Virus record (IMG/VR): IMGVR_UViG_3300027710_000010
Location: 53,763-117,762 of that record
Reading direction: 5' to 3' (one strand)
DNA from: a virus
Taxonomy: Duplodnaviria; Heunggongvirae; Uroviricota; Caudoviricetes
DNA: 64,000 nt
Position numbers and translations under genes: made by a program
Shown here: positions 12,009 to 27,926 of the stretch, piece after piece
Position numbering within the stretch: the first letter of the stretch is position 1
How the letters are laid out: each line of letters opens with the position of its first letter
The notes under the pieces: generated by a model
Told to the model about the DNA's origin: nothing
The model's database searches: none
What the model saw: the letters and a program-made list of their open reading frames with translations, nothing else

Positions 12009-12013
12009 ATGTT

Positions 12014-12088: not shown

Positions 12089-12092
12089 AAAT

Positions 12093-12178
12093 TGGTGGAT
12101 GTGGTAAGATTCGAACTTACTACACTATGTGAACGAGGTTACAGCTCGCCGTGGCTCTCCAGCTCCGACCGCACATCC
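12093..12178 (-). tRNA. type II tRNA with anticodon GTA (second Tyr-like)
   Basis: 86 nt; anticodon arm GCGAG-CTGTAAC-CTCGT, variable arm CAC-ata-GTG, T-arm GTAAG-TTCGAAT-CTTAC, acceptor GGATGTG/CACATCC, CCA. Confidence 0.6.
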
Positions 12179-13125: not shown

Positions 13126-13282
13126 TGACAAAAGAACTTCTGTAACACAATGATTGTATTATAGTTTTATTTATATCTTTTGTCAAGAACCATATTGAAA
13201 TGTGGTATTTTTACGACATTCACGAATCGCCTGTACTACAAAAGCACCCCTATAAATAAAAACATTATACAAAGGATTAACA

Positions 13283-14053
13283 ATGCCGTCAATGAGCGAG
13301 TACACTTCCGAATGGAATACTTACAAACTTAAAACTGAAACTGATCGAGGTATTATCGAAATCAAGTGGAGTGATGCAGACACACTTGCTCAATGGTCAA
13401 ACATTCAAGCAGGATTGTATTTGCAGAACGAAGCATCATCTAGACAACTCTTTTACGAACACTTTACTAGATGGTATCAAATGTTTTGGAATCAACGATT
13501 CCGTCAGGGCATTTTTAATCTAGCCGACGATGCAGTTATTATGGACATTGGATCAGGAGTGGCCGTAATCGACTTGCTCCTTGCCAAATACTTGCCCAAG
13601 TCTAAATTCTACTTATTAGACAAAGAAGGGTTTGAATTTTATCCAGGGGTTTACTACGACCCCAAGTATCCCGAGTACCATAATTGGTCTCCAGTCATTG
13701 ATGCTATCAAGACCAACGGGTTTGATGCTGACAGATTTACAATTTTAAATCAAGATTCCACTTTCCCAGAACAGGTAGATTGCATCACTTCTTACTTGTC
13801 GTGGGGTTGGCATTATCCTAAAGATGTCTATTGGAACAAGGTAATGGCTAGTTTAAAAGTAGGCGGCATGCTAGTAATGGATATACGACCATTAGAGGAC
13901 AGAGATATCATTGCAGAAATTAGTGAAGATCTAAAAGCTGAACCAGTACTTCATCCTTTTGAAATCAAGTTGCCCAAACACGTAGATGCTAGACCATCAC
14001 CTGATCCCTCAAAACCATCCGGTCACAGAGCTATGTGGATTAGAAAGGGATAA
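13283..14053 (+). CDS. methyltransferase-like Rossmann-fold protein
   Basis: IMDIGSGVAVIDLL resembles SAM-MTase motif I; RBS AAAGGA 7 nt upstream. Confidence 0.5.
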   Translation: MPSMSEYTSEWNTYKLKTETDRGIIEIKWSDADTLAQWSNIQAGLYLQNEASSRQLFYEHFTRWYQMFWNQRFRQGIFNLADDAVIMDIGSGVAVIDLLLAKYLPKSKFYLLDKEGFEFYPGVYYDPKYPEYHNWSPVIDAIKTNGFDADRFTILNQDSTFPEQVDCITSYLSWGWHYPKDVYWNKVMASLKVGGMLVMDIRPLEDRDIIAEISEDLKAEPVLHPFEIKLPKHVDARPSPDPSKPSGHRAMWIRKG

Positions 14054-14055
14054 TC

Positions 14056-14691
14056 ATGTTTGAACCCGGTATCGCAAGGGATATTTTCCCTATTAAGATT
14101 TACGAAGCAGAGTTTCCAAACTTTGAGACAATTCAGGAGCGTATACAGACTGCAATTATGCCCTACTTTGATAACCCAGCTTCGGGTAATGAATACGTTA
14201 GTGGTGACGGAACTGCTATGATTATTCGTACGGGTAATGACTTGCACAAAGATCCGTTGTTTAAAGAAGTCACAGAGTTTATCGAGTTTCATGGAAGAGA
14301 GTACTGGAAACAAATTGTCTACACAACACGAGTTGATCCTTATATACTACAAATGTGGGCTAATGATATACCCCCTGGTGGATTTACTCCTGCACACAAT
14401 CATAATCCTGTTCCTATCGGTGGCGCTTTTTATATCAACGCTACTCCAGACAAGGGTAATTTATATTTAGAAGATCCTTTAGAAATGGTTCATGGTAAAG
14501 CTCCGCGTGACTATATGCATAAGCCTTATCTATACACAGAAACAATTACAGTAAAGCCTGGTAAACTTGTTATGTTCCCAGGCTGGATGAGACATCATAC
14601 TAGAAGTAATATGACACAAGAAAATCGTTATGTGCTAGGTTTTAATATAGGTGCTTGGCTAAACTTTATGCCGAAACCCACTGGCCAGTAA
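14056..14691 (+). CDS. putative 2OG-Fe(II) oxygenase-fold protein (paralog A)
   Basis: Shares motifs HNH..GGAFYINA..NLYLEDP and MFPGWMRHHTRSN with the convergent paralog at 14666..15289. Confidence 0.5.
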   Translation: MFEPGIARDIFPIKIYEAEFPNFETIQERIQTAIMPYFDNPASGNEYVSGDGTAMIIRTGNDLHKDPLFKEVTEFIEFHGREYWKQIVYTTRVDPYILQMWANDIPPGGFTPAHNHNPVPIGGAFYINATPDKGNLYLEDPLEMVHGKAPRDYMHKPYLYTETITVKPGKLVMFPGWMRHHTRSNMTQENRYVLGFNIGAWLNFMPKPTGQ

Positions 14692-15289
14692 GATAGCTAC
14701 CTGTAGATCCAAAGTTAACGCCTAGTATTAGGCGTTTTTCATTTGTGGTGTTTGGTTTCACATGATGTCTAATCCAACCAGGAAATAGTATAAAGTCGCC
14801 TGATTCAACTTCGACTTCATAATGTAAATGTTCCTGTGCCTTATAGTCCATCGGCTGCGAAGCAAGAATAGCATCTAATGGATTTTCTATTACTAAGTTT
14901 CCCATTGCTTTGTTAGCGTTCACATACAATACACCAGTCAATGGCATTGCGCCGTGTAAATGACTTCGTACCCATCCGCTATGAGGAGTCTCGTTTGCCC
15001 ATACCTGTATAACTTTAGGTTCCAGCAAGTCTGAGTATTTTAGTTCTTTCCAGTAAATCCTTGCGTGTTCTTCTGCGAACTCTATTAGTTCTTTTGTTTC
15101 TGGAAAAGATTGCAGGAACGAGTTCGTATGGTATGTACACAGTGTTCCGTCCTGCATGGACTCAACATTATTGTCTTTTGTTTGCTCAAACAATGCTGTT
15201 AACTTGGGGAACAAGTTATTTTTAACATCATCTACATTGTTATATTTTGTCTTATAGATTTTAATAGCAAACAAATCTAATGTATTCAT
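14666..15289 (-). CDS. putative 2OG-Fe(II) oxygenase-fold protein (paralog B)
   Basis: SHLHG..GVLYVNA..NLVIENP and LFPGWIRHHVKPN; paralogous to 14056..14691. Confidence 0.5.
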   Translation of the reverse strand: MNTLDLFAIKIYKTKYNNVDDVKNNLFPKLTALFEQTKDNNVESMQDGTLCTYHTNSFLQSFPETKELIEFAEEHARIYWKELKYSDLLEPKVIQVWANETPHSGWVRSHLHGAMPLTGVLYVNANKAMGNLVIENPLDAILASQPMDYKAQEHLHYEVEVESGDFILFPGWIRHHVKPNTTNEKRLILGVNFGSTGSYLTGQWVSA

Positions 15290-15849
15290 TCGTCTTGTTT
15301 CCTGGTTATGTCTGCATAACCATCTACTACATACGCATCAGGATTAAACCTTTTAATTAACGCTTCTTGCAATGGACCTACTGTGGGTCCTTTCCACATG
15401 CTGGCAACTGTTGTGGGCTCTCTTGTTTTCCAATGTTGGAATGCTACTAATGGAAATCCTATTTTTTCGGCTTCTAATCGTAATCCTGCGCCATGTGCTT
15501 CGCCATCTTTTAACGTGTTACTCATAATTGGAGTCTTAGTATTACCTAAACGCATTTTGATAACTTCTACTCCAGGATGTTCATGTGTAGGGACTTTTGG
15601 ATGAGGGTGGATTAGATACATTTCTACTTGAAATCTTCCGTGTCTAAAAATTGAAACCGCACTCGCATCGTCTGACAAGAACACTTCTGGATTTGGCGGA
15701 AACACAATTGGCATGCCATTTTCCATCCACCAGTCTGCAAACTCTTTTACATTGTTCCATGTTTTTGGAATTTCTAAATTTAGATGCGGATTTATCGATG
15801 GAAAGAATGACATGTTTAAATCTGGTCGATGAAAAACTATTTCACTCAT
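15286..15849 (-). CDS. cupin-domain protein (paralog 1)
   Basis: Cupin motif THEHPGVEVIKMRLG (HxHxxxE). Confidence 0.55.
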   Translation of the reverse strand: MSEIVFHRPDLNMSFFPSINPHLNLEIPKTWNNVKEFADWWMENGMPIVFPPNPEVFLSDDASAVSIFRHGRFQVEMYLIHPHPKVPTHEHPGVEVIKMRLGNTKTPIMSNTLKDGEAHGAGLRLEAEKIGFPLVAFQHWKTREPTTVASMWKGPTVGPLQEALIKRFNPDAYVVDGYADITRKQDE

Positions 15850-16343
15850 TTTGTTTGTCCTGTTGTAATTAAAGAGTTGTGTGTATCACCAGTCGTGTCA
15901 CCATGCCAGTGCGCCGCAACACTTGTAGGCTGGACATTATCTGGCCATTGTTCTATACTTAAAAATGCAAAGCCTTTGCCATAAGTCGTTAGCCCATGAG
16001 AATCTTTTGGGTTAAGACGGATTGACTGCTTGAACAGTATACTAGTGCCATCATTGTTAACTTTATTAAAATACGGTTTTGGGTCAGCTACTTCTTTACC
16101 GTTCACTGTAGTATTGCCTTCTCCTGTTAGAAACATTACAATACTTTCGACCCCAGGGTGACTATGCTCTGGAGTTACAGAATTAGGGTCACCTATGTAA
16201 AGTTCTGCTTGAAACTGTCCTTCCCTATATAGCACAACTGCACTGGCATTATCGGTCCTAAAAACTGCATTTTCCTGTGGCGGTCTAACAGGAAAATTAT
16301 TCTCTTCGTACCACTTAGCAAATTGTTCTACATTTTTCCACAT
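15846..16343 (-). CDS. cupin-domain protein (paralog 2)
   Basis: EHSHPGVESIVMFLTGEG; tandem paralog of the upstream cupin. Confidence 0.55.
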   Translation of the reverse strand: MWKNVEQFAKWYEENNFPVRPPQENAVFRTDNASAVVLYREGQFQAELYIGDPNSVTPEHSHPGVESIVMFLTGEGNTTVNGKEVADPKPYFNKVNNDGTSILFKQSIRLNPKDSHGLTTYGKGFAFLSIEQWPDNVQPTSVAAHWHGDTTGDTHNSLITTGQTK

Positions 16344-16365
16344 GCTGTATTTAGTGCAATATACA

Positions 16366-16944
16366 CTAGGTTATTCGTTTGATATCGTTCCAGTCTAAAT
16401 CAGACACGTCAACTAGAATGTCTTGAATTGCCAGTGTTGATTTAAATTCTAAGAGTGTATACATTAGCTTTGCTAGTTCAATAGGTTGCATTTTTTTAGA
16501 ATCAAATATCTTCGCCATATCAGTATCTACTAGACCAATAGTAAAATTCATAATATGAGGCCTTGCTTTAAAAATCCTATCATTAATTATTCTTGACTGT
16601 TCAGCTTTATCTTGAACATATTCTTCCATGTATGCGGGAACATTTTTTATTAGTATAGATTTACTATTAATATTAATTATAGTATTTGTAGTACCTTCCC
16701 ATAATTGTATAGTGTCCAATAACAACTGTTTTTGTGCATTCGGTGCGTAGGCGTTGTTTATAAAAACATCACATGTCTTTAGAACGTTATTAATATGCTT
16801 ACGTGTTGCTTCATCATTGATGTCGTGTCCGTTTGATCTACTGAATCCAAATACTGTATGTCCTTGTGCTGTAAAATATTCAGTTAGGGCTTTACCTATT
16901 CCATTAGTATGACCAGTAATTGCTATGTTCATAACGACTTCCAA
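16366..16944 (-). CDS. short-chain dehydrogenase/reductase (SDR) family protein
   Basis: N-terminal IAITGHTNGIGKAL matches the TGxxxGxG NAD(P)-binding motif. Confidence 0.6.
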   Translation of the reverse strand: MEVVMNIAITGHTNGIGKALTEYFTAQGHTVFGFSRSNGHDINDEATRKHINNVLKTCDVFINNAYAPNAQKQLLLDTIQLWEGTTNTIININSKSILIKNVPAYMEEYVQDKAEQSRIINDRIFKARPHIMNFTIGLVDTDMAKIFDSKKMQPIELAKLMYTLLEFKSTLAIQDILVDVSDLDWNDIKRIT

Positions 16945-18485
16945 TTTAATTTTTTTAAAATATATTCTTGAACTAATATATTGCTTTCTCTTGGATAATT
17001 TTCTAAGACGTTAATATCGTCATCCATCAACTGTTGTAGAGTCTTGTCACTGTAATATTCAAATGGCTTGTTATAAACTAATTCAAGATCTCCGACATTC
17101 CACATTACTGGACCGTAATTTGATGCATATCTATTCTTATAAAAATTAGCAACAATTTTCATAGTGTCCATGATATTCCATTCATCATTTTCCCAGCTTA
17201 TACCAGTATTCTCTATCAAACTCTCCCCTACACCATACTGTGTTGGTATCTGTTTAAATAGGTCCTTAATAGCTGGATACATATCAAAAGCAGTTTCTCG
17301 ATAGTTATATTTTTTCCAGTCAGTGGTTAATTTAGAAAAGTTATCCCCACCGTTTGGTTTAGGAATATACATTGGAAATAATATTAAATTTTCTGTTTTC
17401 CAGTTAGTCTCAAACCACGTTAATGATTTTTCTAGACTCTCTTTAGTTTCATAGGGTAACCCTGCAATTAAACTAACTTGCCCTTTGTATATACCATTCT
17501 TTTTAAAATAGTCCCTTGCTTCCAATAAACCAGGTAGTAGTTTATCAGGGTGCATACCTTTACCGATTGTTTTTAAACTTTCTGGGTTAGTTGATTCTAC
17601 ACCGTAGTGATGTCCTACAAATCCCATGTCTAACATAATATCCCAGTCTTGTTTTCGTGATACTAATAAGTCTGCCCTAGCAAATCCAAAGAATCTAGGT
17701 TTAAATGAAAGTTTTTTGATTGCAGTTTGAAACTTTTGCAATTTTTCTGTATAGTCGTTGACTGTTTCATCTGCAATAACATATCGTGTAACACCAAACC
17801 GATCATATGTGTCCTGCAATTCTTCTCGTAAATCTTCTGCGTCTCTACTGTGATCTTCCTTAACACCTAATACAGGAAAGTTACAAAAACTACAATTGAA
17901 TATACAACCACGACCAAACTCTACTACTAGAGTTTCATTAGCTAAAATAAAATCTCTATCCTCATAACATATTCTTAATTTTTTCATAGGAAAACTTGGA
18001 TAGTCGGTATTGCCTTTGATTACCCTTCTTCCATTTATTCCTAATTGATATTTTACTTTTTCACCACCAGTAATATGTTTGAGCAATGCTTCTATTGCTC
18101 GTTCTCCAAACCCATCTACATACCAATCTGCTTCAATACGATAGTTGTTGCTGATTTGTCCGCCTGCAATAATTTTTATATTAGGATACGTATCTCTTAC
18201 CCACTTAAAGTATAATTCTAATTTAGGCGACCAAATTGGAAAAGTACTACCGAACCCAATAAAAACAGTTTTGTTGCTAACTCTTGAGTTGGTAAATTCT
18301 TGTAACTGTTCTAAACTCCAGCCCATTACAAAGTCTAATACTTCTATGTCCCAATTTTGCTCTCTAAGATAAGTTGCGATCCTATGTGCTCCGCCTGTCC
18401 TCTTGTATACTGCGTGTACATTAGACAATGAACTAAAACCTGTTAAAATTAATCCGTGCATAGTTGTATTATAGTACGCCAGCAA
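16929..18485 (-). CDS. B12-binding-domain radical SAM enzyme
   Basis: CxxxCxxC motif GRGCIFNCSFCNFP mid-protein; ~180-aa N-terminal domain typical of cobalamin-binding class B radical SAM proteins; paralogous to 21144..22571. Confidence 0.7.
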   Translation of the reverse strand: MLAYYNTTMHGLILTGFSSLSNVHAVYKRTGGAHRIATYLREQNWDIEVLDFVMGWSLEQLQEFTNSRVSNKTVFIGFGSTFPIWSPKLELYFKWVRDTYPNIKIIAGGQISNNYRIEADWYVDGFGERAIEALLKHITGGEKVKYQLGINGRRVIKGNTDYPSFPMKKLRICYEDRDFILANETLVVEFGRGCIFNCSFCNFPVLGVKEDHSRDAEDLREELQDTYDRFGVTRYVIADETVNDYTEKLQKFQTAIKKLSFKPRFFGFARADLLVSRKQDWDIMLDMGFVGHHYGVESTNPESLKTIGKGMHPDKLLPGLLEARDYFKKNGIYKGQVSLIAGLPYETKESLEKSLTWFETNWKTENLILFPMYIPKPNGGDNFSKLTTDWKKYNYRETAFDMYPAIKDLFKQIPTQYGVGESLIENTGISWENDEWNIMDTMKIVANFYKNRYASNYGPVMWNVGDLELVYNKPFEYYSDKTLQQLMDDDINVLENYPRESNILVQEYILKKLNWKSL

Positions 18486-19119
18486 TAATGACTACGTTTG
18501 ATTTTAAATGATATTGATCAACTTTATGTACTTTAAAAGCTAATCCGCAAGAATCTAATTGTTCTTTGATTTCTTCTACTGTAAAACATGCTCGTAAACT
18601 ATTTTCAAAATCTAATCTAAAAATGTCGTCCAAGTAGGGCTCTTTAAATTTAATTATTTCTTGTAGTTCTTCTTCAGTATCAGGTCTAATAAAATCTAGT
18701 ATAAAAACATCTTTCGGGGCTATCCTTTTAATGGATTCCCAAAACTGTAAAGGATCGTGAAAGTGATGTAAGGTCAAAGAAGAAATTACCCTATCATAGT
18801 ATTGTGTAACATCTGTGATTGATTTTTGTTCAAATTTAATATTATCGTGATTTCTAGTCAGTGATAACATTTCAGAACTATTGTCTATTCCTACAATTTT
18901 GGTAGTAGGATGTATTACAGCTATTTCTTCAGTTAAGTCTCCAGGGCCGCAGCCAAGATCAACCATAGTTTCTGGGACTTGTTTTTTGACTGACACATAG
19001 GCCAATTTAAATAGATGTTTAATTTGGTCCCTATCATTTTTATAGTATGACTGCACTTGCAAAGGATCTATCATTAATTCTGGTTCAACGATTCTTTTCA
19101 TGATATATTTATTAACCAT
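18469..19119 (-). CDS. class I SAM-dependent methyltransferase
   Basis: Motif I MVDLGCGPGDLT. Confidence 0.7.
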   Translation of the reverse strand: MVNKYIMKRIVEPELMIDPLQVQSYYKNDRDQIKHLFKLAYVSVKKQVPETMVDLGCGPGDLTEEIAVIHPTTKIVGIDNSSEMLSLTRNHDNIKFEQKSITDVTQYYDRVISSLTLHHFHDPLQFWESIKRIAPKDVFILDFIRPDTEEELQEIIKFKEPYLDDIFRLDFENSLRACFTVEEIKEQLDSCGLAFKVHKVDQYHLKSNVVIIAGVL

Positions 19120-19140
19120 ATCATTGATGATATATAATTT

Positions 19141-19992
19141 ATGAATCAGTCTTATACGTTAAGTCCTAGCAACTTCGAATTTGTGATTGAAGATCACTTT
19201 CCAAAATTGCCTAGCAATAAAAAGGTTGGGGTGTTTTTGTCTGGCGGAATGGAATCGAGTTTGATTAGTTTGATAGCCAGCAAGCATTATGGCAAAGATC
19301 GTGTTATCTTCTTTTATTCTGATAATATATTTTCCTCTAACGATCCTGCTAGAAACGTCTACATTCACACTAATATAAATCGAGCTGCCAAACTGCTTGA
19401 TATAACTCCCACTTACTTGGATTTTAATTATACTGCTCACGTTGATAATCGCAAACAATCTATACAGGATAAAATGCAAAGTTTAAAAACAGATTATGCT
19501 GTTGATTTTGTAATGTTTGGCTTTACTAAATTATTTTTCGACGTAGAAATTTTTAAACAGCAGGACATGACTATTGAAAAAATCAAAGAAATTGCCTACG
19601 CTGATCCTATTAAATACAAATCTACTATTGAAGAATTTCATTTAGACACTGGACGATATACTGAGCATTTATTAGACATAGATATTCCAGCCGAAGTATA
19701 CCCGTTGCTCAGGCAAACTTCAGGATTTATTAAGAGTCCTTTTAATCAGTTGAATAAAAGTGAAGTTGTTGACCTTTACAGGCAACTAGGATTACTAGAC
19801 AAGTTATACGGCACGAGCTCTTGTATTAGAGATAGTTTGACTGTTACTGGCAAGCATTGCGGTGCTTGTTTTAATTGTCAGCAAAGGTGGGATGCATTTA
19901 AAATATTGGGTGATATTGAAGACTTAACTGAGTACAATTCCGACAATATTAAACATTATAGAGAACAATTAGAACATGCTATTCATTCATAA
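19141..19992 (+). CDS. QueC-like PP-loop ATP pyrophosphatase
   Basis: SGGMES P-loop (SGGxDS family) and C-terminal Zn-site-like CGACFNC resembling QueC CGHCAAC. Confidence 0.6.
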   Translation: MNQSYTLSPSNFEFVIEDHFPKLPSNKKVGVFLSGGMESSLISLIASKHYGKDRVIFFYSDNIFSSNDPARNVYIHTNINRAAKLLDITPTYLDFNYTAHVDNRKQSIQDKMQSLKTDYAVDFVMFGFTKLFFDVEIFKQQDMTIEKIKEIAYADPIKYKSTIEEFHLDTGRYTEHLLDIDIPAEVYPLLRQTSGFIKSPFNQLNKSEVVDLYRQLGLLDKLYGTSSCIRDSLTVTGKHCGACFNCQQRWDAFKILGDIEDLTEYNSDNIKHYREQLEHAIHS

Positions 19993-21142
19993 AACAGTTA
20001 GTCTATGTGACCATTGTTATAAACACATACCCGCGGTTGTCTACGAAAAAGATGACAAAATCATGATGACTAAGCGTTGTCCTGAACACGGTGAACTTAC
20101 AAGCATTGTTGAAATTGATACTGAATTTTATTACAGACTGCACCATGATAGAGACATTGACTCTTTTAATCAAATTTTATTTGAAGCCAGTGATAGGTGT
20201 CAGCTAAGTTGTCCTCATTGTTATCACCTACCAGACAACAAGATTACTGATAGGCCTATTGCAGAGATCATAGAGCAATTAAGGCAATTTCCTAAAGATA
20301 GTGCGCCTATGTTAGCAGGTGCTGAAGCTACTCTTAGACCTGACTTTATTGAGCTGTGTGAAGAAATTAACACACTGGGATTTAAAAAATTCGAGCTTTT
20401 GTCTAACGGTTTGCGTTTTGCTAATGAGGAATGGACTAAACAAGTTTACGATGCTGGGTTAAAGACCATGTGCTTGGGACTGAACCATCCCAGTTATCAA
20501 GGTGAGTCAGTTCATGCTAAACAACTTGTTGGCTTGCAAAATATGATTGATATAGGCTATGACATTGGCTATGTTGGCTACACTATTGAGGATTACGATC
20601 ATTTAGAGTTTATTTTAAACGAGATCAAGTCTATCCATCATCCTAAAATTAATCACTACAGGATAAGATGTGGTAGTTTTATCGGGCGTAGCAGTGACAT
20701 TCAACGAGGTTATCTAAGTACACTAGTACGATTAGTCAAAGAACAACTTGGTGGCAATGTAACGGCTTATTCTTCGGATGACAATCCATACCATGTTATG
20801 TTACAATGGAATGATATACTACTGAGATTAATCCAGTGGCCGGATGTTACAAATATCGACTTAGAGGAACTTGCGACAGGACCGTGGTGTCAATTTTATG
20901 ATGGCCCAGTTACTAATTTTGTACATCAAGTTATTACTAGAGACGCTTATAAGAATATGAGTTTGCCAAAACTTGATACTGTCCCTGAAAAATACCAATA
21001 TAGAACGATGTCTGGTAGTCACACGGCCTACTGGAAAAACAACTGGCAAGGCCCTATAGAATTTGAATCGTTTGACTGGAATCTAGATAGTATTGGGGTT
21101 AAATTAGCCTCCGCAATCATACCTATAAAAGTAAGGAACTAA
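19976..21142 (+). CDS. radical SAM enzyme with N-terminal Cys-rich region
   Basis: CQLSCPHCY (Cx3Cx2C) plus upstream CDHC...CPEH cysteines. Confidence 0.6.
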   Translation: MLFIHKTVSLCDHCYKHIPAVVYEKDDKIMMTKRCPEHGELTSIVEIDTEFYYRLHHDRDIDSFNQILFEASDRCQLSCPHCYHLPDNKITDRPIAEIIEQLRQFPKDSAPMLAGAEATLRPDFIELCEEINTLGFKKFELLSNGLRFANEEWTKQVYDAGLKTMCLGLNHPSYQGESVHAKQLVGLQNMIDIGYDIGYVGYTIEDYDHLEFILNEIKSIHHPKINHYRIRCGSFIGRSSDIQRGYLSTLVRLVKEQLGGNVTAYSSDDNPYHVMLQWNDILLRLIQWPDVTNIDLEELATGPWCQFYDGPVTNFVHQVITRDAYKNMSLPKLDTVPEKYQYRTMSGSHTAYWKNNWQGPIEFESFDWNLDSIGVKLASAIIPIKVRN

Positions 21143-21143
21143 T

Positions 21144-22571
21144 ATGTCTGGAACTAACGTAATTTTTCTAACCTCAGTCATGACTCACTGGCTTGAAAGA
21201 AGTATTGGTGCATACCAACTTTCCAATTTTATAAAGAATCATGGTTACACAACTCAAGTGATAGATTTTATTCACTTACTGCCCAAAGATGTATTAATGA
21301 TGCTTCTTAAAAAATTTACTAGCGACAAAACTCAAGTATTAGCAGTGAGTACAACCTTTATATCTGAAGATGCCTATATCGGGGCTAACGCTATTAACAA
21401 GCAAAAGAAACCCGGAGTTATGTTTGAAAGTTTATCAACATGCTTAATAGAATATAAAAAACTTTTCCCCCATGTGAAAATAATTGCCGGAGGAGCTAAA
21501 GCAATGAGGTTTTATAATACTGGATTGTTTGACTACTGTTTTACAGGTTACGGTGAATTGGCATTACTAAACTTCTTAAAAGCAGGATCAAATAGGACTG
21601 GTAAAATTATTGAAGGCGATCTTTATCTTGCTAAATTTAAAGCTCATGAAATCGATCACAAATTTTCCGACAATGATGTTATTTTCTCCAACGAAACTTT
21701 GCCTATTGAAATAAGTCGAGGTTGTATATTTAAATGCAAATTTTGTGCGTATCCATTAAATGGCAAGAGTAAACTAGATCACGTTAGGGATACACACTTA
21801 ATAAGAGATGAGTTGATCAGCAATTATGAAAAGTGGGGGATCACAAATTATATCATAAGCGACGATACATTTAACGATAGTAATGATAAATTAAAAACTC
21901 TACATGATATGATTGTAGATCTGCCTTTTAAAATTAACTTTGTGTGTTATCTTCGTCTAGACTTACTTTATCATTTTAGGGATTCACAATTAGAGATGTT
22001 AGAAAACATGGGGTTAAAATCTTGTCACTTTGGTGTTGAAAGTTTTAATCCGACAACGGCAAAATTTATTGGTAAGGGCATGAGTGAAAATAAAACTAAA
22101 GATTTTTTATTATTTTTAAAAGATCGATGGAAGGATAAAATTAGTTTCATGTGTACGTTTATTACTGGGTTACCATTTGAAACAAAAGAAAGTTGTATAG
22201 AAACTGGTAAGTGGTGCAACGATAACAATATAACATTTTGGATGATGCCATTGTTTATAGATCCTGATAGAACATACAAAAGTGACATAGACATCAACTA
22301 TGAAAAATATGGATATAAGTTAGAGGATGACTTATCGTGGACTACTGAGTATATGACAATGGATGAGGCTATTCAAATTGCAAGTGAGTTTACTTCGGAT
22401 CCTAGTAAACACAAAATTTCTGCTTGGAATATGTTTGCATTACTATCACTAGGCGTATATACTGCTGACGAACTGTATCATTTATCTTATTCAGATTTAG
22501 ATAAAGATCAAGGCAGGACACTGATGCAGAAAAAGATGACTCAATATGTACAAAGGTTAATGACAGTGTGA
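21144..22571 (+). CDS. B12-binding-domain radical SAM enzyme (paralog)
   Basis: SRGCIFKCKFCAYP; overall co-linear with 16929..18485. Confidence 0.7.
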   Translation: MSGTNVIFLTSVMTHWLERSIGAYQLSNFIKNHGYTTQVIDFIHLLPKDVLMMLLKKFTSDKTQVLAVSTTFISEDAYIGANAINKQKKPGVMFESLSTCLIEYKKLFPHVKIIAGGAKAMRFYNTGLFDYCFTGYGELALLNFLKAGSNRTGKIIEGDLYLAKFKAHEIDHKFSDNDVIFSNETLPIEISRGCIFKCKFCAYPLNGKSKLDHVRDTHLIRDELISNYEKWGITNYIISDDTFNDSNDKLKTLHDMIVDLPFKINFVCYLRLDLLYHFRDSQLEMLENMGLKSCHFGVESFNPTTAKFIGKGMSENKTKDFLLFLKDRWKDKISFMCTFITGLPFETKESCIETGKWCNDNNITFWMMPLFIDPDRTYKSDIDINYEKYGYKLEDDLSWTTEYMTMDEAIQIASEFTSDPSKHKISAWNMFALLSLGVYTADELYHLSYSDLDKDQGRTLMQKKMTQYVQRLMTV

Positions 22572-23143
22572 ATAACTTTATTACAAAAATAAATTTTACT
22601 GCAGATGTTGAAAAAATGAACGCTGACTTAGACAGCGTATTAAAGCATTTTCATTGGACATTGCCTGCTAGCCCTATCCATAATCAAATAGGCATTAGGC
22701 ATAGACCTGACGCTGACAATATTTGGCTTGATAGCTCGGGCAGTTTATACAATAAAGAGCTAGGAAGATTTACAGGACAAGAAGGCGACTTTTCAGAATG
22801 GAATCCGCACTTACCAGAGTATACACGTACAGTTATTGAACAATTGATGACTTCTGAAAATATTAAAATAGGCCGTGCTAGGTATATGTTAGCACCCCCT
22901 CGACGTGGCCTCACTGTACACAGGGACTTTGAACAACGCTATCATTTTGTTTTACGCACAAATCCAAATGCATTTTTTGGCGAACGGGTTACAGAAGATG
23001 ATGTAACTGCTAAATGCTATCATGTTCCTGCAGATGGATCATTTTATAAAGTAGATACGTTACGTGATCACTTTATATACAACGGCGGCACTGAAGATAG
23101 GATACACTTAGTATTAAATGTGAATGGAAATCAAAATGGATGA
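22568..23143 (+). CDS. Asp/Asn beta-hydroxylase-like 2OG-Fe(II) oxygenase
   Basis: HRD ... H facial-triad arrangement (LTVHRDFE ... RIHLVLNV). Confidence 0.45.
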   Translation: MNNFITKINFTADVEKMNADLDSVLKHFHWTLPASPIHNQIGIRHRPDADNIWLDSSGSLYNKELGRFTGQEGDFSEWNPHLPEYTRTVIEQLMTSENIKIGRARYMLAPPRRGLTVHRDFEQRYHFVLRTNPNAFFGERVTEDDVTAKCYHVPADGSFYKVDTLRDHFIYNGGTEDRIHLVLNVNGNQNG

Positions 23144-23711
23144 ATACAAAGTTATAAACAGATCTACACCAGAGTGGGAAGAGATTTATAAGATTGCTCA
23201 AGAAGATAAAACTCATGATCTATGGGAGAACTATCAGTCTATTAAGTTAGACGAATATGAACATATGATTGTAAATGTGCGTGATTCTAAACCAGCAGCA
23301 TTTCACGGCATTTTTAATCACGGACGATGGCCTGAGAATTACAGTAGGATATGTAATAGAGCATATATAAACCCATACTTTAGAGATCTAGGACAAGGTC
23401 TGGAAATAACCAGTAACAACATCAAATTTGTATTGGACAATTATTCTAAATGGGGTAAGGAAGTGTTATTCATTTCCAGGGGTGTTCAGTACGACAATGT
23501 TGAAGTCAGTTGGCGAAAATTTAAAAAATTTGTGCAATATCTTAAGGATACAACTGGGTATACTGACTTAACCTATGATGATCGTTTATATAAATGTTGT
23601 AGATCTGGGTGTAAAGAATGCTACCAATTTGCTGTATGGTACAATCCGTTGGGAGTAAGTAATAACATATCAAGTATCAGCATGTCTACGTGGTCCAAGT
23701 TACCTAAATGA
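23124..23711 (+). CDS. hypothetical protein
   Basis: 195 aa ORF in operon context; no motifs recognised. Confidence 0.5.
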   Translation: MEIKMDEYKVINRSTPEWEEIYKIAQEDKTHDLWENYQSIKLDEYEHMIVNVRDSKPAAFHGIFNHGRWPENYSRICNRAYINPYFRDLGQGLEITSNNIKFVLDNYSKWGKEVLFISRGVQYDNVEVSWRKFKKFVQYLKDTTGYTDLTYDDRLYKCCRSGCKECYQFAVWYNPLGVSNNISSISMSTWSKLPK

Positions 23712-23742
23712 TAAATATTGATATTAAACAGAGAGAATTTTA

Positions 23743-24477
23743 ATGGATTCTGCAACAATTAAGCAAACACTAGTAGACGAGGTCGCATATTGGGACTCCG
23801 TCAGCATCAATGCGTTTTACAAAAACGCCGCGTATAACCCAACACTGGGCTATCTCACAGTGAAGTCATTTGAAAACGGATATATTGCCGTTAACCCAAC
23901 AACTGTAACTTACTATGATACGGTCTTTGGCATTGAATATAGAATTGCTAAAAACTATAATGAAAACGACTGGGCTTGTATGCAAGGATTATATGCATTA
24001 AGTTTGGATGATGCTAGAGGGTTTAAAATTTGCCAACCGTTGGAATCAAGTTTGGCTACTGTTAATGGTGAACAATGGATGTTTACTGCAATTCAGCATC
24101 CAGATGCTGAATTTGGAAAACCCTGGGTTAATAAAATCCCGGTAGCTGGTTCAAGTATCATTGTTCGATACGCTGAAAAAGCAGTGGATTTTCTTCGTGC
24201 AGTTAAACAGGTCAGCGGCACACATGGCATGGGATTAGCACCAGCAAAGGCTGCAAATTTAAGTGAATTTTGGAATAACGGAACAGGTTGGTATTGGAGA
24301 CGAGTCGATAACTGGTCAGTACCGTTTAATGATGCTGTTAAAAACACATTAAGCGACACTAAATCCTCATTCAATTATTTGGCTGCTAAAGGCAAACCAG
24401 AAGTACTTAGTGCAATAACACACTTAAATGATAAAGATACATACTTGGAAAACTTATGGCTACCATTAACACAATAA
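23743..24477 (+). CDS. hypothetical protein
   Basis: 244 aa ORF; no motifs recognised. Confidence 0.5.
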   Translation: MDSATIKQTLVDEVAYWDSVSINAFYKNAAYNPTLGYLTVKSFENGYIAVNPTTVTYYDTVFGIEYRIAKNYNENDWACMQGLYALSLDDARGFKICQPLESSLATVNGEQWMFTAIQHPDAEFGKPWVNKIPVAGSSIIVRYAEKAVDFLRAVKQVSGTHGMGLAPAKAANLSEFWNNGTGWYWRRVDNWSVPFNDAVKNTLSDTKSSFNYLAAKGKPEVLSAITHLNDKDTYLENLWLPLTQ

Positions 24478-24641
24478 CATTCGAAGTCATTTCTAATAAT
24501 GGAGTAGTCAGCATTGACGTGCCCGACTTCTTAATAGAAGAGTTTGGGCGAACATTAGTTTGGCCGGAAATGCCACATCATGTAAAAATGATTTCGCCAC
24601 TAGACGCTACAAAATCAATTACGACAAATTTTGCTTCTTAA
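24456..24641 (+). CDS. hypothetical small protein
   Basis: 61 aa ORF overlapping the upstream stop; weak. Confidence 0.3.
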   Translation: MATINTITFEVISNNGVVSIDVPDFLIEEFGRTLVWPEMPHHVKMISPLDATKSITTNFAS

Positions 24642-25343
24642 AACTTCTCTAGCAGAAGGTTTAACACTTAAAAATAACTGGTAAGTATCATCGGCCCCGG
24701 TATATGCATCGTGTACTAGGGTCGTATTTATGATGTAAAGTCTGCCTGGCTCTATACCATCAACGTCCTTCATTTGCCCTGAATCTTCATCATAAAATCT
24801 TACATGAAGATCATCAGCGTTCACACATGCCCATAACCTAAACCACAAGGAAGGTATAATCGTATCAATGTGCGGATAAAATTCTGCACCTGCATTCCAT
24901 TTAAAGATGTTTGATCGACACCAATGGTTGTCCAACACTCTCATGGGACTCAGTGATGGCATATTCATAACTGGTGTTGGGGTAGTAAAGTCCAAGTCTA
25001 AAAATGGTGTGTTGGGGTGTTGCTTATTCCAAGCCATCATTGATCCATTGACTGGATCGTTATTGTGTAATACCCCGTGCTCGTTGACTAGAGCTAGGCC
25101 GTACCTTGGCAAGTGTGTATGTGTAGTTCCCCACTGTTCAAAATAGTTATTATATGATTGTATATCAGTCATAAACTGTTTACAATCTATTTTTATATCA
25201 AGAGGGGTTAACGGTTGGGGATGAAACTTTTTATATTCGTCATTGTCTATTACATCAGTAAATGACTTGCATCTTTCTAATGCACCCGACTTTGTGAATA
25301 CCTCAATAGTTTCTGAAATTACTTTATTAGCATCTACTTTCAT
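24615..25343 (-). CDS. Asp/Asn hydroxylase-like 2OG-Fe(II) oxygenase-fold protein
   Basis: FYPHIDTII ... LVHDAY (HxD...H arrangement). Confidence 0.45.
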   Translation of the reverse strand: MKVDANKVISETIEVFTKSGALERCKSFTDVIDNDEYKKFHPQPLTPLDIKIDCKQFMTDIQSYNNYFEQWGTTHTHLPRYGLALVNEHGVLHNNDPVNGSMMAWNKQHPNTPFLDLDFTTPTPVMNMPSLSPMRVLDNHWCRSNIFKWNAGAEFYPHIDTIIPSLWFRLWACVNADDLHVRFYDEDSGQMKDVDGIEPGRLYIINTTLVHDAYTGADDTYQLFLSVKPSAREVLRSKICRN

Positions 25344-25801
25344 AGTTTGTATTTTATACGGGTTACTAACTGTTCGTAAGTTTCATCAAATATAGATATC
25401 TTTAACATGATGCGTTCATTAGGCCCATTAAACACCGCATGTGGTACTGTTGTGTTCAGCAAGGCTTGTTGATAGACGTACTCGATATCTTCAATGGTAA
25501 TTGGCGCAGGTGTATCTGTCAGTATTAAATTAATTGAGCATTGTGTTCCGTTATCAACATGCTCTGGTATTTCTGCAAATGGCTCTAACCAATAAAATCT
25601 TGGTCGCCCTTCAACTTCAAAGTCTGCCATTACTCTTTCAATATGTTCGTCAGTGTAATGCCCAATGTGCCATCGGTCTAATCGTAGTTCTGGATACCTA
25701 GAATCTTTATAAGGTTCAGACTGCAACTTTGCTATTGCGGCTGATTCTAATAAGACTCTGGTATCCAGAGGATAGTTTAACAGTGTCAAATATTCCTTCA
25801 T
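25340..25801 (-). CDS. hypothetical protein
   Basis: 153 aa ORF, translationally coupled to neighbours. Confidence 0.5.
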   Translation of the reverse strand: MKEYLTLLNYPLDTRVLLESAAIAKLQSEPYKDSRYPELRLDRWHIGHYTDEHIERVMADFEVEGRPRFYWLEPFAEIPEHVDNGTQCSINLILTDTPAPITIEDIEYVYQQALLNTTVPHAVFNGPNERIMLKISIFDETYEQLVTRIKYKL

Positions 25802-25812
25802 GGAATATTTAA

Positions 25813-26346
25813 TTAACTATTCAATACCCTTGCTACGGAAGTGATTACTGCGGCAATACGTCCAATATCACGAAGTTGTTCTACAGTGTAGCCTTCCTTC
25901 TTCAATGTTTCGTAGTGCGCCTTGACGCAAAAATGACACTTGCCAACGATACTTGCGGCCAAACTGTATGCTTCAAAACGTGCCTTAGTAGTTCCGCCGT
26001 GGCTAGCAATAGCATTCATACGCAACTGAGCCGGCAGACCAGTTAGTGCAGGATCATCGGCCATCTCAATGTAGGGATACCATATGTTATTCTGTGCCAT
26101 GATTGCGGCTGCTGTCAGTGCGGCGTCACGTTCTTTAACTTCATCTAGTTCATCAGTTTGACTAATCATACTTGCTGAAATAAAAGTAACAAGTTTACCG
26201 TTACCAGTTGCCATTGCGGCTGCTAATGCACAGCCATTTGCTTCAATCTCTTTAAGCGTACTGCGCTTAATTACCGCATCCAGATTTAGTTTAGTGTCCT
26301 TGGCATATTCTGGTAAGCCTTCTTTAATTTGATCAATCCAACTCAT
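25813..26346 (-). CDS. AhpD-like / carboxymuconolactone decarboxylase family protein
   Basis: GKCHFCVKAH (CxxCxxxH) signature. Confidence 0.5.
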   Translation of the reverse strand: MSWIDQIKEGLPEYAKDTKLNLDAVIKRSTLKEIEANGCALAAAMATGNGKLVTFISASMISQTDELDEVKERDAALTAAAIMAQNNIWYPYIEMADDPALTGLPAQLRMNAIASHGGTTKARFEAYSLAASIVGKCHFCVKAHYETLKKEGYTVEQLRDIGRIAAVITSVARVLNS

Positions 26347-26765
26347 TTCTTATCTCCTTGTGTTTCTTTAGCAATTGATTTGTATCCATTATATGTAGGG
26401 TGTACATTATCAGGACTACGTGCATGGTTGCGTGAATCAATGACGTTGTCGTTGTATTTTTTTGCAACCATCAATACTGCATTTCTTTTTGGTTCTTTAA
26501 TGTTAGGTAAGATCCAGTATACTCTATCTGCCTTGACTAACTGCCTAAGCGTGTCCAATTCTTCATATGTATTGATACTTGCATAATCATTCGAGCCCAA
26601 GCTGATAATCACATTTTTTGCTGTGGTGTTACCTTGCGTGTGCAATATATGACGATTAACATAGTCATAACTGTTGATACCGCTCTTGGCATAAGTCACA
26701 CATTCTTTACGAACTTGTCCTACGCCTACTGCTAAACTATCACCCATAATTAAACATTCTAACAT
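26343..26765 (-). CDS. SGNH/GDSL hydrolase family protein
   Basis: N-terminal GDSL motif (IMGDSLAVG) and SLGSNDY block. Confidence 0.6.
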   Translation of the reverse strand: MLECLIMGDSLAVGVGQVRKECVTYAKSGINSYDYVNRHILHTQGNTTAKNVIISLGSNDYASINTYEELDTLRQLVKADRVYWILPNIKEPKRNAVLMVAKKYNDNVIDSRNHARSPDNVHPTYNGYKSIAKETQGDKK

Positions 26766-26766
26766 A

Positions 26767-27387
26767 TCAATATTTCCCTGATGCTAGTACAATTTGACAA
26801 ATGTGTTCTAGTCGTTCAATATGTTCAAACGCACGCCATGGACTTGTGTCAATAGCAACTACACCGTGTCCTTTAATTCCCACAATGTCGTAAGCAACAT
26901 TGCCGTAATCATCTAATTCGAGATTTTCATGACACTTGTCTGCAAGTTCTTGACTGATAGGGGGTACATCACCTACATTAGGCGCAACCTTAGTATAGCG
27001 GTTCAATTCTGGAAACGCATCGCTAATAGTACTTAGGTCAATACCGGCATGCATAGCGGCGATACAGTAAGTCGGATGTAGATGAACTACAACCCTAACA
27101 TCGTTGTTATGCTGTCCCATTGCTCGCTGTAAGCCAAAGTGCAGAGGAATCTCCCCACTTGGTTTTAGATTAGCACTAATATCAGTGTAGAAATCTTCTT
27201 GCCAGAGCAAACCGTGAATGCTGATCTTTTTAAATTGATCAGGTTGCATTGTCTGTTTACGGACGCCACTGGGAGTGATGTAAAAGTGATCACGGTCGTG
27301 ATGACGAATACTTACGTTGCCATCACGACTGGTAATCCAGTTGCGTCTATATGCTTCAACTAATGTATCGCATATAGTTTCTAACAT
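26767..27387 (-). CDS. class II aldolase/adducin family protein (start trimmed to internal Met)
   Basis: RDGNVSIRH ... ITPSGV motifs typical of the L-fuculose/L-ribulose-5-P epimerase family. Confidence 0.65.
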   Translation of the reverse strand: MLETICDTLVEAYRRNWITSRDGNVSIRHHDRDHFYITPSGVRKQTMQPDQFKKISIHGLLWQEDFYTDISANLKPSGEIPLHFGLQRAMGQHNNDVRVVVHLHPTYCIAAMHAGIDLSTISDAFPELNRYTKVAPNVGDVPPISQELADKCHENLELDDYGNVAYDIVGIKGHGVVAIDTSPWRAFEHIERLEHICQIVLASGKY

Positions 27388-27926
27388 TACAGAGTCTCGC
27401 CGCCAACTGTGCGGTTGCAAGCACACAGTTCACCAGTTTGCAATGCGTCAAGAATACGCAGAGTTTCTTCCGGGCTACGACCAACGTTCAAGTTATTGAC
27501 AGTCACATGTTGGATAACGTTCTCTGGGTCAACAATGAATGTGGCGCGGAGTGCGGCTCCTGCTGGTGCGTAGAATACACCCAACTGTTCAACCAAGCTC
27601 AACTCACCACGTTGCGTGTCGGCAAACTGGGTGTGAGTGATCTTCTTCAAATCAGCGTGTGCCATTTGCCATGCTATCTTACAGAACTCATTGTCTGTTG
27701 AGCCTGTTAGCAATACTGCATCGCGGTCAGCAAAGTCGCCTGTTAGTTTGTCGTATGCGACAATTTCAGTTGGGCAAACGAATGTGAAGTCTTTTGGATA
27801 GAACACGATTACTTTCCATTTGCCTTCAAAGCTCTGGTCTGTAATTGTGAAGTATGCATCTTCTGGTTGTCCTGGCTTAACGCCTGTGACTGCGAACGCT
27901 GTTAGTTTATCACCGATTGTTTTCAT
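27387..27926 (-). CDS. peroxiredoxin (AhpC/TSA family)
   Basis: DFTFVCPTEI peroxidatic Cys motif. Confidence 0.75.
   Translation of the reverse strand: MKTIGDKLTAFAVTGVKPGQPEDAYFTITDQSFEGKWKVIVFYPKDFTFVCPTEIVAYDKLTGDFADRDAVLLTGSTDNEFCKIAWQMAHADLKKITHTQFADTQRGELSLVEQLGVFYAPAGAALRATFIVDPENVIQHVTVNNLNVGRSPEETLRILDALQTGELCACNRTVGGETL

Follow-up and report, generated by a model that had tools for sequence, protein, structure and literature searches.

The radical S-adenosylmethionine (SAM) enzyme GDGT-MAS, or Tes, combines a rubredoxin site (C9X2C12X20C33X2H36), an N-terminal auxiliary cluster bound by a second CX3CX2C motif, the radical SAM cluster itself, and, at the C-terminus, a further auxiliary cluster by which the substrate radical is captured (PMC9433317, PMC13459092). 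Canonical QueC, as defined in a 2026 survey of its family, carries the motifs SGGxDS, YxQxHxxE, VPxRN and YPDC together with a Cys4 zinc motif, and elsewhere in the family are branches that act as ligases on protein N-termini (Cap9, QatC) or serve unrelated pathways (PMC13329287). Relatives of both enzymes are encoded in the viral DNA analyzed here, a 64-kb stretch (64,000 nucleotides, hereafter the window) of the IMG/VR record IMGVR_UViG_3300027710_000010, in which 20 closely packed open reading frames (ORFs), o1 to o20, occupy positions 13283–27926. In phages, to our knowledge, radical SAM and B12-dependent chemistry is seldom found and has hardly been studied. The segment 13283–25801 (hereafter the cassette) was shown to be one conserved, virus-restricted functional unit of approximately 17 genes, which holds tailoring enzymes only; because no scaffold-forming enzyme is encoded, its substrate must be pre-made.

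Related loci were compared by tblastn, ORF clustering and family hidden Markov models (HMMs) over 143 fetched loci; in IMG/VR, 307 stretches were related to o11 and 58 to o10. The genes o1–o16 were found to recur together on approximately 12 independent viral contigs, some of them 289–357 kb in length, at 40–90% identity, with 14–17 shared families per locus and in rearranged order. In most relatives, a segment comprising o16, o15, a small ORF and o14 precedes o1; here it is inverted and lies after o13, and in two loci (L100 and L098) the order is scrambled further. Because the gene content is kept through such rearrangement and the genes are tightly coupled translationally, the set was taken to serve a single function, and its recurrence is, judging from these comparisons, beyond chance. 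A preliminary description of this DNA had proposed one functionally linked enzyme set, which the conserved co-occurrence and the coupling bore out. The translational coupling claimed there holds within blocks (overlaps of 1–40 nt or gaps of no more than 31 nt), but co-orientation of the whole set, also claimed, does not: the strands alternate in four blocks of two genes on the plus strand, six on the minus strand, six (or seven with a 61-aa gene) on the plus strand, and six on the minus strand. Moreover, its boundary at 27926 proved too wide, since o17–o20 accompany only the closest lineage and lie outside the conserved unit, and the cassette end was set at 25801 for this reason. The reduced loci L091 and L098 retain o10, o12, o15 and o16 (L091 also o13), and these four genes, o10 together with three whose proteins have iron-binding motifs, constitute the minimal core.

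A cluster of this kind could instead be a hyperplastic island of unrelated auxiliary genes without a shared pathway, brought together through the synteny of related phages. In keeping with this, the 50 kb around it form a mosaic of accessory genes that are unrelated to one another, the AhpC/AhpD/GDSL/aldolase genes turned out to be a separate module, and single families are also seen in other combinations. Such an origin is nevertheless very improbable, given that the gene set is kept despite reshuffled order and orientation, including the joint inversion and relocation of o16–o15–small ORF–o14 and the scrambled loci L100 and L098; that catalytic motifs are retained at 40–60% identity; that coupling within blocks is tight; and that Rosetta-stone-type fusions of radical SAM and GNAT domains exist.

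As to the distribution of the cassette, homologs of o10, o13 and o14 were metagenomic only. At the protein level, cultured phages gave one weak match for o7 and none for o10, and PHROGs held nothing for o1, o4, o5 or o12–o16. Exact peptide patterns from the o10 and o15 alignments, which distant homologs could escape, found no match in 185,579 prokaryotic species genomes (GTDB, one each).

The three radical SAM proteins recognized in the preliminary description were confirmed, each carrying a CxxxCxxC motif:

19976–21142, plus strand: o10, the core radical SAM enzyme, with a rubredoxin-like Zn/Fe ribbon and a radical SAM barrel; a minimal GDGT-MAS/Tes relative
16929–18485, minus strand: o7, a class-B (B12-type) radical SAM enzyme (Radical_SAM, E=3.7e-15)
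21144–22571, plus strand: o11, another radical SAM enzyme of class B (B12-type), whose slot is exchangeable (Radical_SAM, E=6.8e-15; PhpK-family model, E=7.7e-23)

In o10, a rubredoxin-type domain and a radical SAM CX3CX2C core are joined in an overall fold like that of Tes/GDGT-MAS, and the spacing of the rubredoxin motif, CX2CX20CX2H, is identical to that of GDGT-MAS and kept in 15 of 15 orthologs. The protein has a single CX3CX2C, which aligned best with the radical SAM motif; the segment for the N-terminal auxiliary [4Fe-4S] cluster is absent, approximately 25 intervening residues being gone. Three scattered residues, C166, C232 and C305, are invariant within the close o10 subfamily and occur in 10, 15 and 17 of 20 family members, respectively, and no C-terminal Cys motif is shared family-wide. 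Against the Tes/GDGT-MAS model NF045702, o10 scored 86.8 bits, the cut-off being 450. Structurally, o10 is thus of the Tes clade, yet it appears to lack features on which the Tes mechanism relies; it probably abstracts hydrogen from an inert carbon. When the o10 profile was searched against 1.84 billion representatives, the yield was 113 clusters (50% identity) under the threshold E<1e-30, rising to 805 under E<1e-10; most were 325–400 aa long, and the short form is therefore a sizeable family. In BFVD, o10 had no close structural match and found generic radical SAM matches only.

The CxxxCxxC motif is present in 18 of 18 members of the o7/o11 family. Residues 33–359 of o7 and 22–353 of o11, N-terminal domain included, were aligned to the class-B models of PhpK, ladderane, MJ_1487 and HpnR, at scores far under the cut-offs; with the alignments to the HpnJ and BchE models, this agrees with the earlier view of both as B12-type enzymes. 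The Pfam B12-binding model gave only a faint match, in one ortholog, and no PDB sequence matched o11. On these alignments, o7 is probably a C-methyltransferase. The o11 slot was found to be exchangeable: o11 is 41% identical to the gene in the same slot of L144 (7396–8841), as against 77–92% for the flanking genes, and this difference indicates, at the sequence level, a recent swap of one paralog for another. The number of B12-type genes varies likewise, from none in L089 and L099 to 1–3 in the other cassette-bearing loci and up to five in distant loci.

The other enzymes and enzyme-like proteins of the cassette are as follows:

13283–14053, plus strand: o1, a class I SAM-methyltransferase-like protein of 256 aa (motif I [DE]xGxG in 13 of 13 orthologs; D113 invariant)
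14056–14691, plus strand: o2, a TIGR02466/2OG-FeII_Oxy_5 oxygenase-like protein (PF13759, E=1.2e-16; TIGR02466, 65.6 bits against a cut-off of 62.5)
14666–15289, minus strand: o3, a paralog of o2 with 35% identity (PF13759, E=3.6e-15; TIGR02466, 77.5 bits)
15286–15849, minus strand: o4, a cupin-like protein with an HxHxxxE metal motif; a paralog of o5 (35% identity, E=9e-28)
15846–16343, minus strand: o5, a cupin-like protein with an HxHxxxE motif (Cupin_2, E=0.0018, under cut-off)
16366–16944, minus strand: o6, a compact short-chain dehydrogenase/reductase (SDR) of 192 aa (adh_short, E=1.1e-5, just under cut-off)
18469–19119, minus strand: o8, a class I SAM methyltransferase (Methyltransf_31, E=2.4e-16, and four more methyltransferase families above their cut-offs)
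19141–19992, plus strand: o9, a PP-loop ATP pyrophosphatase that has a Cys4 zinc motif of the QueC type but differs from canonical QueC (QueC C-terminus, E=5.5e-10; Asn/NAD-synthase-like N-terminus)
22568–23143, plus strand: o12, an Asp/Asn beta-hydroxylase-family (AspH/LpxO-type) Fe(II)/2-oxoglutarate (2OG) oxygenase (PF05118, 30.5 bits against a cut-off of 22.6; HxD in 14 of 14 orthologs)
23124–23711, plus strand: o13, a GNAT-fold (acyl-CoA N-acyltransferase-like) protein with a C-terminal CCx3Cx2C cluster
24615–25343, minus strand: o15, a protein with an invariant PHxD...H motif (H158, D160 and H211 invariant; PHxD in 13 of 13 orthologs)
25340–25801, minus strand: o16, an AspH-like double-stranded beta-helix oxygenase (hhalign to the o12 family: probability 84%, E=7.8e-6, 90 columns)

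The GNAT-fold o13, the AspH-like o16 and the PHxD...H protein o15 had been missed or left unnamed in the preliminary description, as had the probably non-enzymatic o14 and the 61-aa gene at 24456–24641, which are treated below. Of the three methyltransferases it had counted, two class I-like proteins were recovered: o8 is solid, o1 is backed by its motif I and by weak methyltransferase matches in PDB and NCBIfam, none being above the Pfam cut-off, and a third was not found. Translation of o8 may begin at an ATG 18 nt further downstream, for a protein of 210 aa, the length that gene callers assign in near-identical contigs. The SDR and the paired cupins fall below the Pfam cut-offs, but their assignments find backing in conserved motifs, namely TGxxxGxG/NNA/YxxxK in 13–14 of 14 o6 orthologs and HxHxxxE in 16 of 23 cupin family members. 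Several 2OG-Fe(II) oxygenase-like proteins were indeed present, as o2 and o3 (TIGR02466/2OG-FeII_Oxy_5) and o12 (Asp_Arg_Hydrox), and the three suggested paralog pairs, o2/o3, o4/o5 and o7/o11 (the last 30% identical), were all recovered, in support of duplication within the cluster. In o16, H81, D83 and H121 are invariant. For o15, neither Pfam, scanned with every family member, nor PDB gave a match, and its motif makes an Fe(II) oxygenase a possible assignment. The fold of o13 was recognized as that of GNAT proteins; no Pfam, NCBIfam or PDB sequence match was obtained, and its conserved RGVQY segment differs from the canonical (Q/R)xxGxG/A CoA-binding motif. The family profiles of o1, o13, o14, o15 and o16 gave only noise against PDB sequences.

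The QueC-like PP-loop ATPase of the preliminary description corresponds to o9, which has both the PP-loop and a QueC-type C-terminus. Its PP-loop reads LSGGMES, with SGGx[DE]S in every full-length family member, and PFx4K is also present. The Cys4 motif, Cx13Cx2Cx2C, occurs in o9 and in 13 of 15 family ORFs, the exceptions being a split fragment and one divergent paralog; PDB sequences gave marginal matches only. Meanwhile, YxQxHxxE, VPxRN and YPDC were absent from o9 and from all 15 family members checked (0 of 15). Searches of approximately 60 ORFs of the window with Pfam, NCBIfam and PHROG models revealed no QueD, QueE, FolE, TGT, DpdA, 5-hydroxymethyldeoxyuridine (5-hmdU) kinase, aGPT-Pplase or glycosyltransferase; the suggested check for DpdA/TGT or kinase genes accordingly came up empty in every scanned ORF. 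No P-loop kinase match was obtained in the cluster or the window, and neither TET/JBP nor AlkB was found in the window. Because the three substrate motifs are missing from o9 and its relatives, and queD, queE, folE, TGT and DpdA from the window, the deazapurine chemistry to which o9 had seemed to point is unsupported, and o9 is best described as an ATP-dependent carboxylate-activating enzyme.

These results bear directly on the idea of a hypermodification, by the cassette, of a nucleoside, of phage DNA or of the tRNAs of the phage. DNA modification is a frequent role of multi-enzyme clusters in phages, one enzyme of the radical SAM type acts on DNA in thymidine hypermodification (PMC8989533), and the PP-loop family contains many nucleic-acid enzymes; the variable methylase content resembles an arms-race trait, late expression would fit post-replication modification, and an array of 37 tRNAs adjoins the cassette in the window. 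Set against this are the absence of the QueC substrate motifs from all o9 family members, the absence from the window of TGT/DpdA, QueD, QueE, FolE, 5-hmdU kinase, aGPT-Pplase, TET/JBP, AlkB and glycosyltransferase genes, and the fact that no cluster protein matched an RNA- or DNA-modifying family above noise. A tRNA-modification link in particular was rejected, as adjacency to the tRNA array is not kept in the cassette relatives. A nucleic-acid target is hence quite unlikely, in line with the earlier statement, upheld here, that the cluster fits none of the Dpd/7-deazaguanine, 5-hmdU or glucosyl-hydroxymethylcytosine systems.

Besides the enzymes, the cassette contains a fast-evolving, probably non-enzymatic pair of genes, and motifs resembling late promoters precede o14 and o1:

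23743–24477, plus strand: o14, a fast-evolving, probably non-enzymatic protein of 244 aa
24456–24641, plus strand: the 61-aa gene, translationally coupled to o14 (22-nt overlap)
13251–13258, plus strand: TATAAATA, a late-promoter-like motif 25 nt upstream of the o1 start; one of only two such sites in 64 kb
23710–23717, plus strand: GATAAATA, a late-promoter-like motif 26–33 nt upstream of o14

The o14 family, found at 12 loci, shows identities of just 14–24% and a hypervariable insert. Its only invariant residues are L, W, G and P; because these are merely structural residues and the insert is hypervariable, o14 is probably not an enzyme. It matched nothing in Pfam or PDB, and two homologs were found among 5.8e9 proteins. 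Homology of o14 to the Mtd_N proteins described below was considered and rejected. An ORF of 60–86 aa overlaps the o14 stop codon in 12 of 12 loci. Between the 61-aa ORF and its L144 counterpart, 27 of 44 substitutions lie at third codon positions, and 18 synonymous codon changes were counted, versus 2–4 in the other frames; from its pattern of substitution, the gene is judged to be real and under purifying selection. The small-protein family displays a beta-beta-alpha-beta-beta-like pattern with only P23 nearly invariant, and close relatives are conserved over their full length. The 61-aa ORF did not score significantly against the X6 HMM family and was assigned to its family by position, coupling and residue pattern alone.

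ATAAATA is the core of the T4-type late promoter. In the window, this motif is rarer than expected (12 sites versus 20.9); it stands 25–32 nt upstream of both o1 and o14. At positions −11 to −60, it was found upstream of o14 in 9 of 12 loci (p=4e-8), upstream of the gene with an Mtd_N domain in 7 of 9 (p=7e-7) and upstream of o1 in 6 of 13 (p=2e-4), relative to a background of 13 of 203 other ORFs, the p-values being optimistic in that related loci are treated as independent. The sequence around the motif has diverged across the loci, and the motif alone persists. At least part of the cassette therewith looks late-expressed.

Of the new observations, the link of the o10 family to virion and fibre genes is the most informative. 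Next after the cassette, most relatives carry a gene of varying length that has a late-type promoter motif upstream and encodes the N-terminal anchor domain (Mtd_N) of Mtd, the tropism determinant of a Bordetella phage; after it come 4–6 more radical SAM genes, one of them a confident twitch-domain family member. An Mtd_N gene was present in 26 of 69 o10-bearing loci, at a median separation of 3.8 kb, and in L115 and L118–L120 it converges on o10, abutting or overlapping the o10 3′ end. Seven more distant members of the o10 family were also examined for their neighbors: one comes immediately behind the gene of a tail Collar protein, within a P22-like structural module, two are in operons with a head-tail adaptor or capsid gene, one is beside another Mtd_N gene, one has an ambiguous context, and two are fused to a GNAT domain. 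In the library of papers that was searched, no precedent was found for phage radical SAM/B12 clusters, for ribosomally made peptides of phages that are modified after translation (RiPPs), or for radical SAM enzymes with tail fibres.

Two features of these relatives stand beside the neighborhood data. The fusions (L153, 1671–3077; L157, 300–1709) combine a rubredoxin-like Zn ribbon, a radical SAM domain and a GNAT acetyltransferase domain in a single polypeptide, the GNAT part being clear in P0316 and faint in P0344. They parallel the pairing of o10 with o13 at the fold level only; homology of o13 to the GNAT domain of P0316 was rejected, no profile similarity being found. In addition, the second radical SAM block next to Mtd_N was located in related jumbo-phage contigs (L139, 13788–21001; L142, 12311–21140; L155, 10337–14994; related loci L114, L121 and L125). 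Its 4–6 genes include a twitch-domain NF033640 member (383 bits) as well as SPASM-like and viperin/MoaA-like members, and in some loci the radical SAM copies of the B12 type or of the X2 type number five, so that the related phages may encode at least nine radical SAM enzymes.

The link to virion and fibre genes can be read in two ways: either those proteins are themselves modified, or the cassette occupies an accessory-gene site beside tail genes and has a receptor or the envelope as its target. The gene neighborhoods point to late or fibre-like proteins at least as much as to a metabolite. A protein target was favored because of the conserved non-enzymatic partners, the late-promoter motifs, the fibre linkage, the lack of a scaffold enzyme, and enzyme types like those of peptide and protein maturation. 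That the substrate is a late protein of the phage, namely the o14/61-aa pair here and Mtd_N-type fibre-like proteins in the relatives, is accordingly our tentative suggestion, though one that falls clearly short of an even chance. Under this scheme, the cassette would act late in infection on a pre-made substrate: o10 would take a hydrogen atom from an unactivated carbon, the oxygenases would hydroxylate the substrate, and inert carbons would be C-methylated by the B12 enzymes in patterns varying from phage to phage, while o1 and o8 would O- or N-methylate. Activation of a carboxylate by adenylation for amidation or ligation would fall to o9, as in QueC-family ligases such as Cap9 acting on protein N-termini, and o13 would transfer an acyl group. 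As a whole, this would amount to a post-translational modification system akin to proteusin, bottromycin or methyl-coenzyme M reductase maturation.

Several observations weigh against a late-protein target. The window itself contains neither an Mtd_N gene nor a second radical SAM block, and the reduced locus L091 has the core enzymes with neither o14 nor Mtd_N within 10 kb. The 61-aa protein looks, from its residue pattern, like a small folded domain without an invariant modifiable residue and not like a leader-core precursor; Pfam and NCBIfam searches of the cluster, which divergent RiPP recognition elements (RREs) can evade, gave no RRE/PqqD-like domain, leader peptidase or exporter. SDRs and cupins are more usual in small-molecule pathways, and the closest structural relative of o10 works on lipid tails. 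Sites beside tail genes are classic places for receptor-modifying accessory genes, and the optimism of the promoter p-values noted above also counts here.

In a second explanation, the cassette would tailor a small molecule, lipid or envelope component already present in the host, be it a metabolite resembling an amino acid, lipid A or an acyl chain, or a polysaccharide of the surface, and so remodel the infected cell or mask the receptor. In that case, o10 and the B12 enzymes would functionalize aliphatic carbons and the oxygenases would hydroxylate, with o9 amidating, o13 acylating, o6 reducing and o1/o8 methylating. Such a target would fit the lipid affinities of o10 and of the class-B matches, the presence of SDR, cupin and GNAT proteins with their small-molecule flavor, and accessory genes directed at the envelope in other parts of the window. 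On the other hand, o10 appears to be without both auxiliary clusters used in the mechanism of Tes, Mss and Gms (PMC9433317), and the class-B matches are non-specific and far under their cut-offs. No convincing membrane segment was detected in any cluster protein, no glycosyl-, nucleotidyl- or lipid-carrier enzyme is encoded, and the conserved o14/61-aa pair with its late-promoter motif would be left unexplained, as would the Mtd_N linkage. Taken together, a host-molecule target is a possible but doubtful alternative.

Returning to the late-protein target, its broader form holds that uncultured aquatic phages possess a toolbox, comprising a minimal Tes-like radical SAM enzyme, swappable B12 C-methylases, several Fe(II)/2OG hydroxylases, a ligase on the QueC scaffold and a transferase of GNAT fold, with which they modify their own late, fast-evolving proteins; in this generality, the proposal is conceivable and rather doubtful. 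In regulatory terms, the cluster yielded neither a cobalamin riboswitch nor any other regulatory RNA.

Directly downstream of the cassette, four genes form an adjoining, separate module:

25813–26346, minus strand: o17, AhpD
26343–26765, minus strand: o18, GDSL-like
26767–27426, minus strand: o19, class II aldolase
27387–27926, minus strand: o20, AhpC peroxiredoxin

The AhpD, class II aldolase and peroxiredoxin labels given earlier to o17, o19 and o20 agree with Pfam and NCBIfam, whereas the GDSL hydrolase label of o18 is weaker than had been stated, being below the Pfam cut-off. This module is found with the cassette only in the closest lineage (L081, L145 and L147) and elsewhere without it; the class II aldolase is missing from the close relative L145 owing to an indel. 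A role of the aldolase as a 5′-deoxyadenosine salvage partner of the radical SAM enzymes was rejected, given the indel in close relatives and the lack of partner genes. The AhpD/GDSL-like/AhpC genes are a small mobile module that is seen again close to radical SAM genes of the B12 type on several further viral contigs (loci noted: L145, L147, L036 and L101); hypothetically, the module might guard oxygen-sensitive Fe-S enzymes. Directly past the AhpC end, at 28064–28474, lies an HNH endonuclease gene whose position is kept in L081, L145 and L147; it is possibly a homing element marking a recombination hot spot.

The window belongs to an uncultured T4-like myovirus with rIIA (33626–35791), rIIB (32644–33648), NAMPT and a NadR-like gene. 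Its genome is probably approximately 300 kb in size, because a protein identical to o14 sits on a 299.6-kb contig. The cluster DNA had zero megablast matches among 50,697 phage records, and the conserved flank matched such records at 63–69% identity in short pieces only; by these comparisons, the phage appears to have no close cultured relative. Across 16–24 kb (o6–o14), the GC content is 0.33–0.36, against approximately 0.38–0.46 in the rest of the window, and the low-GC center of the cassette may reflect a different origin or codon usage.

The tRNA array at 4981–12178 comprises 37 tRNAs by ARAGORN; every one lies on the minus strand, each of the 20 amino acids is covered, and an Ile(tat) call is 92 nt long. 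Rfam gave two extra tRNA-like matches (9585–9703 and 11927–12008). Between the array and the cassette, at 12844–13292 on the minus strand, five perfect or near-perfect sigma-70 promoters (TTGACA-17-TATAAT) are spaced at approximately 100 bp inside a 99–100-bp tandem repeat. All five face the array and look like a tandem early-promoter battery for the tRNA cluster. A two-piece (permuted) transfer-messenger RNA (tmRNA) of the betaproteobacterial type is encoded at 41428–41876 on the minus strand (Rfam RF01850, 104 bits; RF04321, 123 bits), with the tag peptide AKTSTFKFFEVPASVARAANAERFELAA and an ATAAATA motif at its 5′ edge (41848–41854); a similar tmRNA was called in the relative locus L101. 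The tmRNA type suggests a betaproteobacterial host.

Further accessory genes were noted in the window. A curli-type secretion set, uncommon cargo in a lytic phage, includes CsgG (51744–52562), CsgF (52552–52992) and an ORF at 51050–51703 with a weak, sub-threshold curlin-repeat match; it adjoins a FecR-domain protein (50011–51171) and a CHASE2-adenylate/guanylate cyclase (44304–46409), the whole extending over 44304–52992. Envelope and lipid genes at 40617–44282 encode a Gcw_chp outer-membrane protein (40617–41339), an S11 D-Ala-D-Ala carboxypeptidase (43533–44282) and, on the opposite strand, a fatty-acid desaturase (42839–43552). Adjacent, overlapping genes for a heme oxygenase and a ferredoxin-dependent bilin reductase (54943–56161) are present in this seemingly non-cyanobacterial phage, and we take them to be similar to the PcyX-type pairs of marine viral metagenomes. 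Nicotinamide phosphoribosyltransferase and the NadR-like cytidyltransferase/NUDIX gene (37294–39981) constitute an NAD salvage pair, presumably comparable to those of KVP40-type phages.

If the target is indeed a virion or tail-fibre protein, the cassette would represent new phage biology with a bearing on host-range prediction and phage engineering, namely the enzymatic diversification or hardening of virion and receptor-binding proteins as a layer of host-range and stability control undescribed in phages. With a metabolite or lipid as the target, it would rank among the largest known phage-borne tailoring pathways. In either case, the cassette is a phage-borne enzyme cluster, and it would be categorically new only if the protein-modification reading is true. 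The modular toolbox spans hundreds of uncultured viral contigs, some with up to nine or more radical SAM genes.

Compared with the known systems, the cassette agrees at the level of folds alone, and it is a member neither of the canonical QueC/Dpd nor of the thymidine hypermodification systems, nor, mechanistically, of Tes. With respect to GDGT-MAS/Tes (MJ0619, PDB 7TOL/7TOM; related Mss and Gms), o10 is viral, soluble and approximately 110 residues shorter than GDGT-MAS, and it has neither the N-terminal auxiliary-cluster segment nor a family-wide C-terminal Cys motif. Because these features are missing, the cluster-sulfur-assisted Csp3-Csp3 coupling of Tes is not simply transferable to o10. 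With o10, a new branch of the Tes/GDGT-MAS radical SAM family is defined, one that is minimal and poor in clusters. As for the QueC family (PF06508; QueC, Cap9 and QatC), o9 shares SGGx(D/E)S, PFx4K and Cys4, and its C-terminal part is above the Pfam QueC cut-off; in contrast, it is without YxQxHxxE, VPxRN and YPDC, so that nothing hints at 7-carboxy-7-deazaguanine binding, it has no QueD, QueE, TGT, CD-NTase or QatABD neighbors, and its motifs fit none of the ten clusters in PMC13329287.

The phage thymidine hypermodification systems (M6, ViI and PaMx11; PMC8989533) and the Dpd/preQ0 systems are, like the cassette, combinatorial multi-enzyme clusters of phages that may hold a radical SAM enzyme and an acetyltransferase. 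They differ in their 5-hmdU DNA kinase, aGPT-Pplase (amino-acid:DNA transferase) and DpdA/TGT, all absent from the window, and the radical SAM enzyme of the cassette, o10, is Tes-like and unrelated to spore photoproduct lyase. The known peptide and protein maturation systems resemble the cassette in combining multiple class-B radical SAM enzymes and another radical SAM enzyme with Fe(II)/2OG hydroxylases, SAM methyltransferases and an ATP-dependent enzyme, in having no scaffold-building enzyme, and in a methylase content that varies among relatives. In the cassette, a recognizable leader-core precursor, an RRE, a protease or an exporter was not found; SDR, cupin and TIGR02466 proteins are atypical of such pathways, and the cassette is carried by a lytic phage behind late-promoter motifs. 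Finally, o2 and o3 belong to the same family as the 2OG-Fe(II)/TIGR02466 auxiliary genes of aquatic T4-like phages and occur in the same kind of phage and of genomic region (PMC3037559, PMC9964418). In distinction from those genes, for which more than 15 years of cataloguing in aquatic T4-like phages have yielded no function, o2 and o3 are embedded in a conserved 17-gene cassette, and the cassette thus provides this family with a defined biochemical context.

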